The translations under genes and the position numbers were made by a program. Positions 2,894 to 12,826 of a DNA stretch of 64,000 nucleotides are shown here, piece after piece. The stretch comes from an uncultured Planctomycetota bacterium (lineage in GTDB: Bacteria; Planctomycetota; Planctomycetia; Isosphaerales; Isosphaeraceae), in NCBI GenBank assembly GCA_963823665.1, contig CAWGMQ010000010.1:1952001-2016000 (forward strand), read 5' to 3'. The notes beneath the pieces were generated by a model. It had not been told where the DNA came from. It saw nothing but the letters and a program-made list of their open reading frames with translations, and searched no databases. The stretch's first letter is position 1. Each line of letters starts with the position of its first letter.

Positions 2894-4358
2894 TCACGCG
2901 TTGTACGATGACGAAGCGGTCATCCCGCCGCGCCCCGTCCAGTTCGTGTGGAAAAACTCCCCCCGGGGGCGGTCGACGCGTTCGTATTGATGGGCCCCGA
3001 AGTAGTCGCGCTGGGCTTGCAGCAGGTTCGCGGGTAGGGACGCGCAGCGGTAGCCGTCGAAATAGGAGAGCGCGGCCGTCATGGATGGCGCGGGAATCCC
3101 CCCGCCAGCCGCCGCCATCACCGTGCGCCGCCAGCCAAGCTGAGAGCGCTCGAGCTCGTCGCGAAAATACGGGTCGAGCATGAGGTTTGCCAGCTTCGTG
3201 TTCTGCTCGAACGCGGTCTTGATCTTGCCCAGGAACACGCTCCGGATGATGCATCCGCCGCGCCACATCAGTGCCACACCGCCGCGGTTGATCTCCCAGT
3301 TCGATTCCCTCGCCTGCGCGTCCATGAGCGCGAAACCCTGTGCGTAGGAGACCATCTTGCTGGCGTAAAGCGCCTGTTCAATGTCGTCGACAGACGCCCG
3401 AACCGCTTCTGGTCCGGAAAGCGTCGAGCCGTTGAGCAGCTTCGCCGCCGCCACTCGCTCCTCTTTCTGGGCCGAAAGGCAGCGTGCGAAGACCGCCTCG
3501 GCAATGAGCGTCAGCGGCACGCCCTGGTCCGCGGCCGAAACCACCGTCCACTTTCCCGTCCCTTTCTGGCCGGCGGCGTCGAGTATCAGGTCGACCATGG
3601 GCTTCTTTGTCTCGGGATCGATGTAGGCCAGGATATCGCGGGTGATCTCGATCAGGTAGCTGTCGAGCAGCGCCCTCGTTCCAGCGTGCGAAGACGTCAT
3701 GAATCTGGGCCGGCTCCATACCAAGCGACTGCCGCAGCAGGAAATAGGCCTCGCAGATGAGCTGCATGTCGCCATATTCGATGCCGTTGTGCACCATCTT
3801 GACGAAATGCCCCGCGCCCTCGGGCCCGACCCAGTCGCAGCAGGGTGTTCCATCCTCGACCTTGGCGGCAATCGCCTGAAAGATCGGCTTGACGTGCGGC
3901 CATGCCGCCGGATCGCCGCCGGGCATGATCGAAGGTCCCTTGAGCGCCCCCTCTTCGCCGCCGGACACGCCTGTTCCAATAAAATGCAGCCCCTTGGCCT
4001 TGAGCGCCTTGGTGCGCCGGGTCGAATCCGGGAAATGTGAATTGCCGCCGTCGATCAGGATGTCCCCAGGCGAAAGCAACGGGACGAACTCATCGATCAC
4101 CTGGTCCACCGCGTCGGCCTTGACCATGATCATGATCTTGCGAGGCGCCTTGAGCGCGGCGACCAGTTCCTGCGGCGATCGTGTGCCGACGATCTTCTTC
4201 CCCTTGGCTCGCCCCTCGACAAACGCGTCGACCCGAGAAGTCGTCCGGTTGAACACCGCGACGGTGAAACCGTGGCTCTCCATGTTCAGGACGAGGTTCT
4301 CACCCATCACCGCCAGGCCGACCAGCCCGATGTCGGCGGTTTGCGCACTGGATGCCAT
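2894..4358 (-). CDS. gnd: 6-phosphogluconate dehydrogenase, NADP-dependent, decarboxylating (one apparent frameshift near 3675)
   Basis: ORF 3378..4373 has IGLVGLAVMGENL, DGGNS and VKMVHNGIEYGDMQ. ORF 2894..3979 has LDSYLIEIT, GQKGTGKWT, WRGGCIIRS and QAQRDYFGAH. Confidence 0.95.
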
Positions 4359-4472
4359 GCTTTCGGCCCTCACTGGGTCATCGCTTGCCGGAATTGTCTC
4401 GATCGCGCAGATTGTACCAACCTGCGTACGACAATTCGACGATCCTCGGCCGGCAGCCTCGCTGTGCCCCGT

Positions 4473-5620: not shown

Positions 5621-7043
5621 GTGCGCCGTGAGGCATCAACTGCAACCCTGGCGCCTGGAGGCTCGGACGTGCCGCGGTCAGCAATAACCGGGAGGGCCGA
5701 TTTGGCGAGCTCCGAGAAACCCAAGGAAGCGCAGAGCGTTCCACGAGATTTACTGCCGGTCATGCGCGCCTCGGGCGTGATTTCCGAGCGCCAGCTCGCG
5801 GAGATTCAGCGCCAAGATCCTGCACGGCGACTTTCCTCAGGATTCCGTCGAGCTGGCCGAGGCCTTGGTGCGCGACAAGATCATCACGCCCTTCCAGGCC
5901 CGGCGGTTCCTGTCGAATCGGCCCAATGGCTTGATCGTGGGCCGCTACGTGATCCTCGACCGGATCGGCTCCGGCTCGATGGGGCGAGTCTACAAGGCCC
6001 ATCACCCGATGATGGACCGCACCGTCGCACTCAAGATCATCGCCCCGGAAATCGCCGCCAACGAGCGGGTCGTCGCCCGGTTTCAGCGCGAGATGCGGCT
6101 CGTCGGCCGGCTCGATCATCCCAACGTTGTCCGCGCCTTTGATGCTGACCAAATTCATAAAATCTTATATATCGTAATGGAGTATGTGACTGGCCAGACA
6201 CTGGGCGAGCTTGTCAAGAAGAAGCCCCTTCCGCCCCTCGATATGGCCGATTTCGGGTTTCAAGCGGCCCTTGGCCTGGCGCATGCTCACGACCAGGGTA
6301 TCGTCCATCGCGACGTCAAGCCGTCCAACATCCTCTTGACCGAAGACCGCAAGATCAAGGTCCTCGACCTGGGCCTGGGCGTGCTCATGGAAGCCGACAA
6401 CGCCGCAACGTTCGCCACGGCCGACGGCATTGCGGTCGGAACCGTCGACTACATGTCTCCCGAGCAAGCCTGCGGCAGAGAAGTGGATGGCCGCAGCGAT
6501 CTGTACGGCCTGGGCTGCTCGATGTACTACCTCCTGACGGGCAATCTTCCGTTCCCCGGCAGCTCACCCATCGAGCGGCTCGGCAAGCGGATCAGCGGCC
6601 GCCATGTTCCGATCACGGAGCACCTCCCGGATCTTTCCCCGAATTTTGTAAAAGTGATCGACCGGCTGCTTGCCCCCAAGCCGCACGAGCGATTCGCAAC
6701 CGCCGCCGATGCGGCCGACGCCCTGCAGAGCCTGTTGAAGCCCAGGACCAGGCCGTCTCCCGCTCAGCAGGCGCAAGCACCGGCCCCCGCGAGCGCCGCG
6801 CCGGTTGCGGGTCCGCCCGATGCGAAACCAGCCATTGCCGCCAAGCCGCAGGCCGCTCCGGCCCCGGCCGACGGCCCGATGGTCGTGAAGATTCGGCCCA
6901 AGTATCCCTCCTGGTTCGAGCCCGCCGCCCGCCTCGCCGAAACCCGCCCAAAGTACGCGCTCGCGACCACGGTCTCGATTCTAGTGGTCGTCTTTACGGC
7001 AGGAATCGTTGCTGGGTTGATCTTGAAGGCTTTCTTGGGCTAA
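5621..7043 (+). CDS. Ser/Thr protein kinase with Pro/Ala-rich linker and C-terminal TM helix (apparent frameshift near 5810)
   Basis: ORF 5865..7043 has GSGSMGRVY, HRDVKPSN, DLG and GTVDYMSPE. The N-terminal part lies in ORF 5621..6142. Start uncertain. Confidence 0.85.
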
Positions 7044-8059
7044 TGGTGCGCCCCCGCGTGAACTGGCTCCGGCTCTACACTCTTCGCCGGAACATGCTCG
7101 ATCACCGCTCGAAGCGCATCGACCAGGTGCGGATACTTGAACACATACCCGAGCTCGAGCGCCTTCTTCGGCAAAACTCGCTGCCCCGTCGTGATCACGC
7201 TCGCCGCCTCACCCAGAACAAGCCGCAGCAGACCGTCCGGCGGTCCGAACGGCAGATAAACCCTCCAGGGCGTATAAGGCTTGCGTAAAACAGCCGAGAA
7301 CGTCCGTGCGAACTCAGAATTGCGCACCGGCTCAGGCGCCGTCCCGTTGAGTGGCCCCTTGGCCGCGCCGTTCTCAATCGCCAGCCGGAAAAGACCGACG
7401 ATGTCGTCGATGTGAATCCAGCTCATCCACTGATTCCCCTCGGCAATCAGCTTGCCTGCCGCACCAATCGGCGCTCCCGGCCCGATCTTGAAGATCGGCG
7501 TCATGATCTTGAGCGCGCCCCCGCCGGGAGCCAGCACGATTCCGGTCCGTAGCATCACCCGCCGGACACCCAGTCCCTCGAGCCCCGCCGAGGCTTCCTC
7601 GGCCTCCCGGCAGATCACGGCGAGCAGGTCCGAGCCGGACCCGGCCGACTCATCGAATTCCTGATCGCCCTGCGCGCCGTAAAAGCCGATGGCAGAACCG
7701 TGAATAAACACCGGCGGGCGCTCTCGCGCCTGCTTGATCGCGGCGGCCAGTTGCTCCGCGCTGTGCACGCGGCTGTCGCGCAGCTTGCGCTTGATCTCGG
7801 TGTTCCAGCGATTGGCGAAGATGTTGTGACCGGCAAGATTCACGACCGCATCGCAGCCGTCCAGCTCGTCCTGCCATCGCCCGGGCGCTACCGGGTCGCC
7901 TTGAACGATCCGGAAGGGCCACATTTCTCGACGGCGACGAATTAGATCCGCGTGTCGCGACAGGATGATCGGCTCATGCCCGTCTTCCTGAAGCGACTGC
8001 GCCAGACGCACTCCGATCAGCCCCGACCCGCCCGCAAGAAAAACGCGCAGCTTCGACAT
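7040..8059 (-). CDS. TIGR01777/YfcH-like NAD-dependent epimerase family protein
   Basis: MSKLRVFLAGGSGLIG, AVVNLAG, SAIGFYG, LRTGIVL, MSWIHIDD and GQRVLPKKALELGY motifs. Confidence 0.9.
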   Translation of the reverse strand: MSKLRVFLAGGSGLIGVRLAQSLQEDGHEPIILSRHADLIRRRREMWPFRIVQGDPVAPGRWQDELDGCDAVVNLAGHNIFANRWNTEIKRKLRDSRVHSAEQLAAAIKQARERPPVFIHGSAIGFYGAQGDQEFDESAGSGSDLLAVICREAEEASAGLEGLGVRRVMLRTGIVLAPGGGALKIMTPIFKIGPGAPIGAAGKLIAEGNQWMSWIHIDDIVGLFRLAIENGAAKGPLNGTAPEPVRNSEFARTFSAVLRKPYTPWRVYLPFGPPDGLLRLVLGEAASVITTGQRVLPKKALELGYVFKYPHLVDALRAVIEHVPAKSVEPEPVHAGAHH

Positions 8060-8306
8060 CCCCGCCGATCCCTCCTGATCTCGCTGTTTTCCCCGAATGT
8101 ACACAGAGTTGCCATCTTCGGGTGTCAACGAATCGCCGTCAAGCATGGTGAGCGTGCTCCGTCGCAAAGGAGATGTGGAATCGGTGTGAACTCGCGGTGA
8201 AGTTCGCTCCAGCCGGTTGGCTGCCGCCTCGGGCCTTGATAACATTCGATCGTCGTTCCTCGAGGGAAGTCGAAGATCCGGCTCCGACATGGGAGGAAAA
8301 GAGCCA

Positions 8307-9200
8307 ATGACGACGCGCGTGAGCAAGTGGTTCGATCTGACCGATCTCGTGCCCGCTTACGAGCCGCGGATGCCGGTCGTGCTGGTCAATGGTCTCGCGG
8401 AGCAATCCGAGAGCTGGTTCGCCAACCGATCGGCGCTGTCACGACACTTCGACCTGAAGGTGCCCGAGATCCTGGTTTACGATGGCGATTCGCTCCATCG
8501 GCGGATCGAGTCCGGCGGCGAGATCAACGTCGAGTACCTTGCCGATCGCCTTTGCCTGTATCTGGACGAGTTTGTTCAACGATCGCCGAGCCATCTGGTG
8601 GCTTCGAGTCTCGGCTGCCAGGTCGCGCTTTCCGTCGCCGTACGGCGCCCGGAACACATTGCCAAGCTGGTGCTGATCGCCCCGTCCGGATTTCACGGAG
8701 GCGAGAGCCTGCCCATGATCGACGGCGTGCGCCGCAGCGCCACGGCGGGGCTGGTTCGCGCGGTCTTTCATGGCGGCCGGTTCGCAACCAAGGAGCTGGT
8801 TGCCGATGTGCACAGCAAGCTGCAGGATCGCCGATGGAAAAAGGGCGTTCTGCGCACGCTCAGGGGCACGGTCGGGAATTCCGTCGCTCCGCTCCTGCCG
8901 CTCGTTTCGCAGAATGTTCTCGTGATCTGGGGCGCCGAGGATCGAGTGCTCACGGATCTCCCCGGCGCGATTCTCGCCGGCGAGCGAATCCGCCGTGCGC
9001 GCCAGGTTGTCATTCCCAGGTGCGGCCACGCTCCTCAGATCGAGCGAGCCGGCCTGGTCAATCGGCTCATCTCCCAGTTCCTCCGCGACCAGCTCAAGTC
9101 GATTCCGCTCGATCTCGCGCCGCAGAGGTTCCTGTCGCGCATTGCCGAGCCTTCCGGCGCCGGCCGTTCGATCGAAGCACCTGCCCATTCTGTTTCATGA
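8307..9200 (+). CDS. Alpha/beta-fold hydrolase or acyltransferase
   Basis: Nucleophile elbow ASSLG, acid in WGAED, His in CGHAPQIE; GGGAGG just upstream; stop overlaps the next start (ATGA). Confidence 0.85.
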   Translation: MTTRVSKWFDLTDLVPAYEPRMPVVLVNGLAEQSESWFANRSALSRHFDLKVPEILVYDGDSLHRRIESGGEINVEYLADRLCLYLDEFVQRSPSHLVASSLGCQVALSVAVRRPEHIAKLVLIAPSGFHGGESLPMIDGVRRSATAGLVRAVFHGGRFATKELVADVHSKLQDRRWKKGVLRTLRGTVGNSVAPLLPLVSQNVLVIWGAEDRVLTDLPGAILAGERIRRARQVVIPRCGHAPQIERAGLVNRLISQFLRDQLKSIPLDLAPQRFLSRIAEPSGAGRSIEAPAHSVS

Positions 9201-9787
9201 ATGCTACAGTCCGCGATTTCACCCTGTTCCTGGGCAAGTTCTTGAGGCATGGAACGGCGATCGCCAGCATCGCCCCCAGCAGCCGCTGGCTCTCGCGCTT
9301 GACTGTGCGAAACGTTGAATGGGCCCGTGCCAGGGCGATCGTTGAGTTGGGCGCCGGCACAGGGCCGATCACACGCGTGATCGCCGAGCGGGCGCACCCC
9401 GAATGCCGTGTCCTGGTCGTCGAGCGCGACCCCGATTTCGCTCGCCTGCTCCGGGACCGGTTCGCTGCCTTGCCGAATTTTGAAATCATCAGCGAAGACG
9501 TCGCCGATTTGAGCGCGATCCTCCTCGACCGGGGAATCAGGTCGGTCGACCACGTCATATCGGGTCTGCCGGTTCCCTCGTTCCCACGCGTCTTGCAGCG
9601 ATCGCTGTTCCGGGCCGTCAGCCGTGTGCTCGGCCCGGAAGGAACGTTTAATCAGCTCACCGAGATCCCCTGGCTTTACCGCCGGCTTTACCAGCGGCAG
9701 TTCGAGGAAGTGCAGTTCGTGCTCGAGCCGCGCAACTTACCCCCGGCCGGCACTTATTTTTGCCGCCGGCCTCGCCCGCTCGAATAG
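9197..9787 (+). CDS. olsG: Lipid N-methyltransferase, PmtA/OlsG-like class I SAM-dependent
   Basis: 3' part of ORF 8327..9787 from MNATVRDF, with IASIAPSSRWL, VELGAGTG, VISGLP and RNLPPA motifs. OlsG of Singulisphaera acidiphila is the characterised planctomycete member; orthology is not verified. Confidence 0.6.
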   Translation: MNATVRDFTLFLGKFLRHGTAIASIAPSSRWLSRLTVRNVEWARARAIVELGAGTGPITRVIAERAHPECRVLVVERDPDFARLLRDRFAALPNFEIISEDVADLSAILLDRGIRSVDHVISGLPVPSFPRVLQRSLFRAVSRVLGPEGTFNQLTEIPWLYRRLYQRQFEEVQFVLEPRNLPPAGTYFCRRPRPLE

Positions 9788-9802
9788 GCAAATCACGGGC
9801 AG

Positions 9803-11419
9803 ATGAACGCGCAGACGCAGAATCTGACTCAGGCTCCTTTGACCGATGCACCCGGGCGCAGGGCGCTTCCCGGCGCGTTCGAGCGCCGGCTCGTCAATGC
9901 CGGATTTCGCTTGACGAGTGCGCTCAGGCGTCGCGCACTGGAGCGTGCCGATCCCGTTCGAGCCCAGCAGATCGAACTGCGCCGGCTGTTGAAGAAGGCG
10001 CGAGCGACGAAGTTCGGCCGCGAGCATCGATTCGACAGAATCGATTCGGTGCCGGCGTTCCAGCGCGCGGTCCCGATCCGGACATACGAAGCGCTTTGGA
10101 ATGAGTTCTTGCGCGCAGCTACCCCGTCTTCGAGAACCTCACGTGGCCGGGCGCATTCCCTACATCGCGCTCTCCAGCGGCACGAGCCAGGGTCCGACCA
10201 AGTTCATTCCGGTTTCCTGGGAGATGCTGCGATCGAACCGGCGGGCGAGCCAGCACGATGCTCGCCTGGCACATCGGCTCCCGGCCGGGCTCGCGAGTCT
10301 TCGACGGCCGGATCTGCGTGCTGGGAGGCTCGACGAATCTTGAAAGCGTAGCTCCGGGCGTATTCCAGGGCGACCTGAGCGGAATCGCGGCCGTCGAGGT
10401 GCCGCGGCTGCTAAAGCCCTATGCGTTTCCGCCACTCGAGCTGGCACTCGAATCAGACTGGGACAAGAAGATCTCTCGACTCGCCGAGGCGGCCGTTCAT
10501 GAGCACATCACACTCCTCTCCGGCGTGCCGAGCTGGCTGATCGAGTTCCTGGAGCGCGTGCTCGATCACACCGGCAAGTCCCGGATCGTCGATGTCTGGC
10601 CGCAGCTCGAGCTGATCGTCCACGGCGGCGTGAAGTTTGATCCGTATCGCCAATCATTCCGGTCGCTGGTTGGCTCCGCCGACGTCGTGTTCCAGGAGGT
10701 CTATCCCAGCTCGGAAGGGTTCATCGCCTACGGCGACCCCGCCACGGGCCTGCTTCGACTGGTATTTGACCACGGCATCTTTTTTGAATTCATCCCGGTG
10801 GATGAGCTCGATTCGCCGCACCCTGTCCGGCACTGGCTCGGAACCGCCCAGCCGGGTGTAAATTACGCGATCGTCGTATCAACCTGCGCGGGCATGTGGG
10901 CCCATCTGATCGGCGACACCATTCGCTTCGAGTCGCTTGCCCCTCCGCTCCTCACGTTCACCGGACGCACCGGCAACTGGCTTTCAGCCTTTGGCGAGCA
11001 TCTCATCAACGAGGAGGTCGAGGAAGCAATCGCCCATTCCCTTCTGGTCACCGGGGCAGCCTTGCGCGACTGGCACATCGGGCCGGTGTTCCATTCCGCA
11101 GGAATGGGGCATCACCTCCTCGTTGTCGAGTTCGACGCCGAGCCGCACGATCCCGCCCGGTTCCGTGACGAGTTTGACGGGCAGCTCTGTCGCCGCAACG
11201 CCGACTACCAGGCCCATCGCACCGGCGGCGCAGGGCTGCCGCCCCCGGCGTTGATCATCGCCCGCCGTGGCGCGTTTCGAAGGCTGGATGCGCTCGCGAG
11301 GCAAGCTCGGCGGCCAGCATAAGGTTCCCAGAATGGATAGCGGCGGCGCCTTGACGGGCGAGCTCATTCAGTTCTTGCGCGCGACGGCCAACGTCCGCGT
11401 GGAGCTATCGGAAGTCTGA
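9803..11419 (+). CDS. GH3-family acyl-acid amido synthetase (several apparent frameshifts near 10115-10255 and 11278)
   Basis: Joined ORFs 9803, 10101 and 10258 plus a hand-read tail give ATKFGREHRF, ALSSGTS, IVHGGV, YPSSEG, IGDTIRF, FGEHLI and WMRSRGKLGGQHKVPRM, ending at TGA 11417-11419. Confidence 0.88.
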
Positions 11420-11449
11420 GGCCAGACACCAGCCAGCAATTCAATCCGA

Positions 11450-11704
11450 TCAGGCCGCAGCTCGCTTCTTTTCAACAAGCGCGGCAATCTGGCCGATGGA
11501 ATCGAGGTGCTCGACGCCCGCTTCGTACGCCTCAACCCTGATGTGGAAATGTTCCTCGAGAAAGACCACCAGCTTCAGGGTGCGTATCGAGTCGAGAATG
11601 CCTCCGGTGATGAGCGGTGTGCCCTCCGTGAGCTCACCAGGATCTTCACCGGGAAGGAATTCCTGCAAGATGAAATGATGCACGACCTTCGCCGTTTCTT
11701 CCAT
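11450..11704 (-). CDS. Acyl/aminoacyl carrier protein
   Basis: 84-aa acidic protein with GILDSI phosphopantetheinylation motif followed by LVVFLEEHF. Confidence 0.85.
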   Translation of the reverse strand: MEETAKVVHHFILQEFLPGEDPGELTEGTPLITGGILDSIRTLKLVVFLEEHFHIRVEAYEAGVEHLDSIGQIAALVEKKRAAA

Positions 11705-11960
11705 GATGGCCTCGAGCCGCTCAAGCACACCGAAGAATTTCGTTCGATCACCATGGCTATCCGGCGCCGCTCAAATCAATCGCGCACCGGATCAACATGG
11801 CTCATTCGCAATGACTTGGCAGGCTACACTTTCACCCGCATCCGGTCAATCTCGAGTTTTTCTCAAGGACACGCCCCCGGCATGTCGAACATGGATCTGG
11901 GAGACTCCCTGCGCAGAGACGGCAATTCACGCCGAACTTGTTGAAACAGAATTAGTTAAG

Positions 11961-11989
11961 TTGACAGTTCGGCGTCAATCGAGTAGAGA
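11961..11989 (+). promoter_or_regulatory. Putative sigma70 promoter overlapped by an inverted repeat
   Basis: TTGACA-17 bp-TAGAGA about 100 bp upstream of the export gene; TTGAC-N8-GTCAA palindrome at 11961-11978. Confidence 0.4.
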
Positions 11990-12088
11990 GCAGGAGCACA
12001 GTCTGCTCTGTTCTATCCCGCGCGCCAGACCGCATGGCTCGCAAGTGCCCTTCGCGAGCGCGGCAAGCCCGGGTTTATTCAAGGTGGA

Positions 12089-12826
12089 ATGCTGATGACA
12101 GCAAGGATGGTCATTCACCCTTGCCGCCCTCTCTTACTGGCTGCCGCCCTGGCGCTCGTGGCGTCAGCGGGTTGTCACGGATTCGCTCGCCAGCATGAAG
12201 CCAACAAGATCCCCCAGCTTGGAACGATTGATCCCAGCCAGCCGGCCGAGCTGCGAAAGGTGTCGCAGTCGCCTTACGTGATCGAGCCGCCGGACGAGCT
12301 GGAGATTTCCACCAAGCCGCCTCTGCCGACGTCGATGACAACACCCTTCATCGTTCGCGGCGATGGCTTCGTCGATCTTGGCCTCTTCGGTGAGGCCTTC
12401 GTCTACGGCTTGACGCTGTCGGAAGCCGAGGAACGGATCGCCGTCCAGTTGAACGACGCGGCCCGAAGACTGACTCCAGAGGTGAAGGACAAGTACCAGG
12501 TTGCGGTGCGCCTGGCGAACAATCAAAGCAAGTACTATTACGTGCTGGGAACGGTGGGCAACCCCGGCCGATTCAAGTCGGGCGGCAACGACACCGTTCT
12601 GGACGCCATCTTGCAAGCCGGCTTGAAACCGAACAGCCTCCCCGAAAAGGCCTACCTCGTGCGCCCGCATCCCCCCGGCGGCGAGGACCAGGTCTACAAG
12701 GTTGATTGGGTCGGCATCAAAGACCGCGGCGACACCCTGACAAACTACCAGCTTTTCCCGGGCGACCGAGTGGTCGTTCCAGGCACCAAGCCGCCGGGGT
12801 TGATCCGTAGCTTGCTCGGCAACTGA
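12089..12826 (+). CDS. Polysaccharide biosynthesis/export (Wza-like, SLBB) lipoprotein
   Basis: Lipobox-like SAGC, YVIEPPDELEI, VRGDGFVDLG, TVLDAILQAG and NYQLFPGDRVVV. Confidence 0.85.
   Translation: MLMTARMVIHPCRPLLLAAALALVASAGCHGFARQHEANKIPQLGTIDPSQPAELRKVSQSPYVIEPPDELEISTKPPLPTSMTTPFIVRGDGFVDLGLFGEAFVYGLTLSEAEERIAVQLNDAARRLTPEVKDKYQVAVRLANNQSKYYYVLGTVGNPGRFKSGGNDTVLDAILQAGLKPNSLPEKAYLVRPHPPGGEDQVYKVDWVGIKDRGDTLTNYQLFPGDRVVVPGTKPPGLIRSLLGN

Follow-up and report, generated by a model that had tools for sequence, protein, structure and literature searches.

In a 64,000-bp stretch of an uncultured Planctomycetota bacterium of the Isosphaeraceae (assembly GCA_963823665.1, contig CAWGMQ010000010.1, positions 1,952,001–2,016,000; hereafter the window), three closely coupled genes for an alpha/beta hydrolase fold protein, a methyltransferase and a GH3 protein converge with a gene for a small carrier protein. 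The question raised by this locus is whether the four genes form one amino-lipid pathway, as an earlier reading of the sequence (the original prediction) had proposed. Comparisons within the source genome (16.5 Mb in 12 contigs, 92% complete) and with related genomes make it very probable that two unrelated systems lie side by side, namely an olsI-olsG-olsH ornithine-lipid operon and the carrier of a proposed proline/pyrrole envelope relay.

The trio is the planctomycete olsI-olsG-olsH pathway for a phosphorus-free ornithine lipid, which is already known. Trimethyl-ornithine lipids are known membrane lipids of planctomycetes. OlsI, OlsG and OlsH were the top NCBIfam models for the three products, and the gene order matched Sinac_1601-1600-1599 of Singulisphaera acidiphila. 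The olsI product scored 395 bits with NF052614 (cut-off 385), and the residues of its putative triad Ser101-Asp212-His241, with roles as usual in alpha/beta hydrolases, did not vary in any of 26 syntenic loci. The methyltransferase contains the S-adenosylmethionine motif ELGAGTG, reached only 50 bits with the PmtA model, and sits between olsI and olsH like Sinac_1600; by this position and motif, and not by score, it is predicted to be orthologous to OlsG and to have the same activity. The GH3 protein showed three Pfam GH3 domains, and its pieces jointly covered positions 14–522 of the 524-position OlsH model NF052613. Its motifs SSGTSQGPTK, VYPSSE and GMWAHLIGD correspond to the three nucleotide-binding motifs of OlsH, with the serine of motif I kept, whereas motif II is printed as TYPCSE for S. 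acidiphila OlsH (PMC12493201). With the same model an intact olsH product from the same genus scored 843 bits and a paralogous GH3 protein of the source genome 91 bits.

The order olsI-olsG-olsH was found in 18 of 19 OlsH loci compared with 5-kb flanks, the exception being a second olsH copy in genome G006, and in all eight olsH-bearing loci of a second set of 16. Because this order recurs across loci, the arrangement is not due to chance, and the trio, which the original prediction had treated as a unit, is conserved together. The coupling of the genes described there also holds in its coordinates (Table 1). A related-locus search with the GH3 core returned only two loci, neither of them a named S. 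acidiphila record; relatives are labelled Planctomycetota.

An operon of these same three genes in S. acidiphila was characterised in 2025, including a knockout, and olsG is flanked there by olsI and olsH (PMC12493201). OlsH makes N-acyl-ornithine from free fatty acid with ATP and Mg, prefers ornithine and requires no acyl carrier protein (ACP) and no CoA, and mutation of the essential Ser115 in motif I abolished its activity (PMC12493201). OlsI transfers the second acyl chain, and ornithine lipid was made in E. coli extracts with only OlsH and OlsI, while the olsH knockout lost trimethyl-ornithine lipid (PMC12493201). OlsG N-methylates the head group of the ornithine lipid (PMC12493201; PMC12971839), and the pathway and OlsG are common to Isosphaeraceae and Gemmatales/Gemmataceae (PMC12971839; PMC5352709). 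By orthology with these proteins, OlsH of the window would join a fatty acid to ornithine, OlsI would add a second fatty acid as an ester, and OlsG would add methyl groups to the delta-amino nitrogen until trimethyl-ornithine lipid is reached, all of them steps demonstrated in S. acidiphila. Thus, what had been put forward as a candidate pathway is a characterised one. The N-acyl amino acid formation proposed for GH3 and the proposed head-group methylation agree with the published activities; of the two roles offered for the alpha/beta enzyme, acyl transfer was right and acyl release was not.

The operon in the window is therefore one more member of the pathway characterised in 2025. It shares genes, order, orientation, family models and GH3 motifs, including the essential motif I serine, with the S. 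acidiphila system, but it belongs to a different, uncultured genus and contains four frameshifts, very probably assembly errors (see below). The OlsBA and OlsF pathways share the product class with olsIGH; their enzymes are unrelated to OlsH and OlsI and use acyl-AcpP (PMC12971839). In the source genome one weak PF13444 match was found (24.8 bits; a 219-aa protein with no NCBIfam hit), which is a candidate only and was not assigned to OlsB. This GNAT-type acyltransferase gene is coupled to a CADD-like redox gene (L137:2330-3717, G000:C5), and the two are possibly an N-acyl amino-acid synthase pair.

Whether the carrier belongs to this pathway was weighed separately. The NCBIfam model that it matches (NF052616, 'ACP_for_OlsHI'; 142 bits, cut-off 130) was assigned to OlsHI by the NCBI curators, and its name, 'ornithine lipid biosynthesis acyl carrier protein', would make the carrier the dedicated fatty-acyl donor of OlsI, a donor that is left as 'X' in PMC12493201. 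Among 60 family genomes, each at least 90% complete, the carrier was found in 59 and olsH in 55. The distance from carrier to olsH was within 500 bp in 34 genomes and 0.5–5 kb in seven; the two genes were far apart in two and on different contigs in 11, and five genomes had a carrier without olsH. Adjacency is well conserved (34/54 within 500 bp and 41/54 within 5 kb), which would suit a donor of OlsI. However, none of the 41 close pairs was co-oriented, the two genes being on opposite strands in all of them. The carrier was kept in all five genomes without olsH, and no match to it was found in three of three family-f5 genomes (97–99% complete) that have olsIGH. By strand, by the olsH-less genomes and by the f5 genomes, neither co-transcription nor co-inheritance of the carrier with olsH and olsI was found.

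In four of the five olsH-less genomes yfcH directly abuts the carrier, so the whole of olsIGH is absent there; olsI and olsG were not found genome-wide in G013 and G024, nor at the locus, where the search was made, in G048, G054 and G058. The Wza-like polysaccharide export gene adjoins the carrier in most compared loci, and because yfcH and this export gene are conserved neighbours as well, adjacency of the carrier to olsH alone says little. Moreover, OlsI was active in extracts of E. coli that lacked the carrier (PMC12493201), and by sequence the carrier is of the peptidyl-carrier type. Its phosphopantetheine serine, Ser39, lies in the motif GILDS and was kept in 15 of 15 cases, and its best PDB matches were peptidyl carriers, followed by PltL, the D-alanyl carrier and PigG. 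No Pfam match was obtained for it. A homologue search returned 2279 proteins, and among the 120 matches listed was a 79%-identical protein labelled Isosphaeraceae. In three of six second-copy loci (G012, G051, G053) the extra carrier copies precede SGNH genes. The carrier is thus very unlikely to be the OlsI donor; it is probably not part of the ornithine-lipid pathway, and its place beside olsH would reflect inherited synteny.

Instead, as judged from sequence, a predicted fold and gene context, the carrier is most likely of the type II peptidyl class and serves a proline/pyrrole envelope relay whose genes are dispersed. The original prediction had linked it to the operon by adjacency only, and co-occurrence, sequence type and operon context point to this relay. 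A predicted stand-alone proline ligase was present as a single copy in 60 of 60 family genomes. Its pocket, read at positions chosen by GrsA numbering, was DLFYLALVC in 19 of 20 genomes and DLLYLALVC in one, and the PltF alignment reads DLLYLALVC. A flavin dehydrogenase homologous to acyl-CoA dehydrogenases was found in 58 of the 60 genomes; in 15 of 57 its gene lay no more than 15 kb from that of the carrier. It best matched prolyl-carrier dehydrogenases (E 5e-124, the top-scoring ordinary acyl-CoA dehydrogenase giving 5e-77) and scored below the cut-offs of PigA (440 vs 500) and RedW (393 vs 650). Ligase, dehydrogenase and carrier were all kept in the five family genomes without olsH, and ligase and dehydrogenase were not found in the three f5 genomes carrying olsIGH. 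Thus, the source genome encodes a carrier with Ser39 together with a predicted cognate proline ligase and a predicted prolyl-carrier dehydrogenase.

The ligase gene lies in a conserved run with an MBOAT-like membrane protein (19/20 genomes), one or more SGNH proteins (20/20) and a PF03279, lipid A acyltransferase-like gene (19/20, the contig ending in the twentieth genome). The membrane protein was undetected as MBOAT by Pfam and by PDB sequence profile search; in the atlas it showed a similarity of 0.93 to MBOAT clusters, and its predicted model (pLDDT 85) gave DltB as the best fold match (E 7e-7). The ligase is thus encoded with an MBOAT-like protein and an SGNH partner. In the source assembly one SGNH gene of this operon is seen only as a 163-aa piece. 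In the proposed relay the ligase would load proline onto the carrier, the dehydrogenase would turn the carrier-bound prolyl residue by oxidation into a pyrrole- or pyrroline-carboxyl group, and the MBOAT and SGNH pair and/or the PF03279 enzyme would transfer this group to a glycan or lipid of the envelope.

Type II nonribosomal peptide synthetase pyrrole modules such as PltF/PltL/PltE and PigI/PigG/PigA likewise consist of a small carrier, a prolyl-carrier dehydrogenase and a stand-alone ligase for proline whose pocket code is the same. In contrast to these modules, the genes described here are dispersed and single-copy in nearly all family genomes, and their association is with genes for MBOAT, SGNH and lipid A acyltransferase-like proteins and not with a polyketide synthase (PKS) or a halogenase. 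DltABCD and AlgIJ are envelope acylation relays, and the present set shares with them an adenylating ligase, a carrier, an MBOAT with a DltB-like fold and an SGNH-fold partner; it differs in that the predicted cargo is oxidised proline, not D-alanine or acetate, and in its diderm planctomycete host. The balance leans modestly towards the view that nearly all Isosphaeraceae-type planctomycetes have a housekeeping Dlt-like relay that esterifies a proline-derived pyrrole- or pyrroline-carboxyl group to an envelope polysaccharide or glycolipid, and that the name 'ACP_for_OlsHI' is wrong.

In a search beyond the family, two of 150 genomes of the phylum (G226 and G140) had the dehydrogenase. In G226, a distant planctomycete, a single run of genes in the same orientation encodes the dehydrogenase, MBOAT, carrier, ligase, SGNH protein and a polysaccharide flippase. 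The carrier of this run is 61% identical to that of the window, and no GH3 match was found in G226; a carrier inside a proline-ligase operon of a genome without a GH3 match argues further against the carrier being the donor of OlsI. In G140, ligase and dehydrogenase are part of a PKS cluster, the carriers of which are more distant.

A literature search, in which subscription journals were not covered, found no description of such a relay, and a proline-derived envelope relay is apparently undescribed. If it exists, antibiotic-type pyrrole chemistry would serve as a family-wide surface modification, and a bacterial family would have an undescribed envelope modification of which all genes are listed here. 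If the carrier works in it, the curated family name would be misleading, and the carrier would not answer the question of the acyl donor of OlsI.

The two systems might also share the carrier. CloN7 and CouN7 are alpha/beta-fold transferases that put pyrrole-carboxyl esters on aminocoumarins, and by analogy OlsI could use the pyrrolyl carrier to place a pyrrole-carboxyl ester on lyso-ornithine lipid. This would account for the lasting adjacency of carrier and olsH, and a second lipid also vanished in the olsH mutant of S. acidiphila; that lipid, however, was not labelled by ornithine (PMC12493201). Furthermore, in 19 of 20 genomes the relay has transferases of its own, encoded next to the ligase, and family f5 keeps OlsI while none of the three pyrrole genes was found there. 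Shared use of the carrier is therefore very unlikely, and separate ornithine-lipid and proline/pyrrole systems are preferred.

The GH3 gene of the window is split over several frames, its pieces corresponding to positions 14–96, 92–139, 87–480 and 477–522 of the OlsH model. Alignment with the open copy of G001, a genome of the same genus, located one-base indels near 10116, 10148, 10246 and 11275. All four were absent from short-read contigs of a near-identical strain (run X1), which differed from the window by no substitution in 183 bp, one in 276 bp and none in 337 bp, and each of the four indel differences restores the GH3 reading frame. Because the X1 contigs lack all four, the frameshifts are very probably assembly errors in an intact gene. 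In runs X2–X6 the shares were small, and no habitat was derived from these runs. That olsH is a true pseudogene in a decaying operon, as four frameshifts inside 1.6 kb could suggest, is extremely improbable given the X1 contigs, the open olsH of G001 in spite of that genome's own one-base breaks in olsG and yfcH, and further split genes in the assembly, namely the prolyl-carrier dehydrogenase (two frames, probably another assembly error) and 6-phosphogluconate dehydrogenase. The latter (window 2894–4373) also runs over two frames, another sign of assembly indel errors.

A PF01663 phosphodiesterase-family gene was considered as a partner of the carrier and rejected. It lies directly upstream of the carrier and co-oriented with it in 35 of 59 family genomes (e.g. 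L032:1729-3360). Because its orthologue was not found in the source genome (best match 43%, a paralogue) and 24 of the 59 carriers are without such a gene upstream, it is at most an accessory to the carrier.

Besides the curated name, the conserved adjacency and the 'X' donor of OlsI, several points weigh against reading the locus as an intact olsIGH operon beside a relay carrier. The olsG product scored 332 bits with NF041658, 18 below the cut-off of 350; this cut-off was reached in only eight of 41 genomes, many syntenic copies scoring below it. The GH3 pieces scored 559.6 and 86.7 bits against a whole-protein cut-off of 620 for NF052613, the gene being split. The X1 contigs had a low depth (2.7–4.4) and possibly come from the assembly's own source sample. 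In a quick tree of the PF01663 gene, three changes were needed for the five olsH-less genomes; the five may have one origin, and this quick search does not prove independent losses of olsIGH. The dehydrogenase is split in the source genome, and the acceptor is indicated by hints only: the export lipoprotein gene beside the carrier, the flippase gene in G226 and the PF03279 gene beside the ligase. S. acidiphila is now genetically tractable (PMC12493201).

Table 1. Features of the locus and of the proposed relay. Positions refer to the window unless a handle of the source genome (G000) is given.
Feature	Position	Strand	Remarks
yfcH/TIGR01777 oxidoreductase	7040–8056	-	TIGR01777 283 bits, cut-off 207; conserved divergent neighbour, synteny marker
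olsI (alpha/beta hydrolase fold)	8307–9200	+	297 aa; GGAGG upstream
olsG orthologue, predicted (methyltransferase)	9197–9787	+	196 aa; ATGA overlap with olsI at 9197–9200
olsH (GH3)	ATG 9803 to TGA 11419	+	15-bp gap after olsG; about 538 aa with the four indels discounted
Carrier protein	11704–11450	-	84 aa; convergent with olsH, 30 bp past the olsH stop
Polysaccharide export lipoprotein (Wza-like), predicted only	12089–12826	+	PF02563; divergent from carrier
MBOAT-SGNH-ligase-PF03279 (lipid A acyltransferase-like) operon	G000:C5:308084-314913 (L138:1084-7913)		
Stand-alone proline ligase	G000:C5:312305-313906		Best match over pocket region PltF
Prolyl-carrier dehydrogenase (flavin; acyl-CoA dehydrogenase homologue)	G000:C10:36850-38014 (L103:8845-10060)		

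A scan of window positions 8000–12200 gave no promoters and two terminators, no more than in shuffled sequence. Some genomes (e.g. G055, G056, G057) have a second full-length olsH above the cut-off; upstream of the second olsH of G006 no olsG or olsI was found within 1.6 kb, where the contig ends.

The G140 cluster (L170:7413-15336, G140:C50) contains the proline ligase, the dehydrogenase, two carriers, a PKS, a carrier-fused aminotransferase and methyltransferases, and would be a conventional pyrrole-type natural-product cluster of another planctomycete family. In G037 a distant carrier homologue has an asparagine synthase-like gene on one side and an exosortase-type acyl ligase gene on the other (L098:2455-8423), at a locus that also has NAD synthase-like and polysaccharide deacetylase genes.

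The paralogous GH3 gene of the source genome mentioned above (563 aa; G000:C10 ~1,617,700–1,626,900; L050:537-8921, L106:7698-9498) ends a co-oriented run with two FabZ-like genes, a long ACP gene, two ketosynthase genes and an alpha/beta hydrolase gene, which is probably a second acyl-amide lipid pathway. Of 14 other GH3-paralogue loci checked, 10 showed this run again, in one case with only one ketosynthase; two genomes that lack olsH, and four other families, are represented among them.

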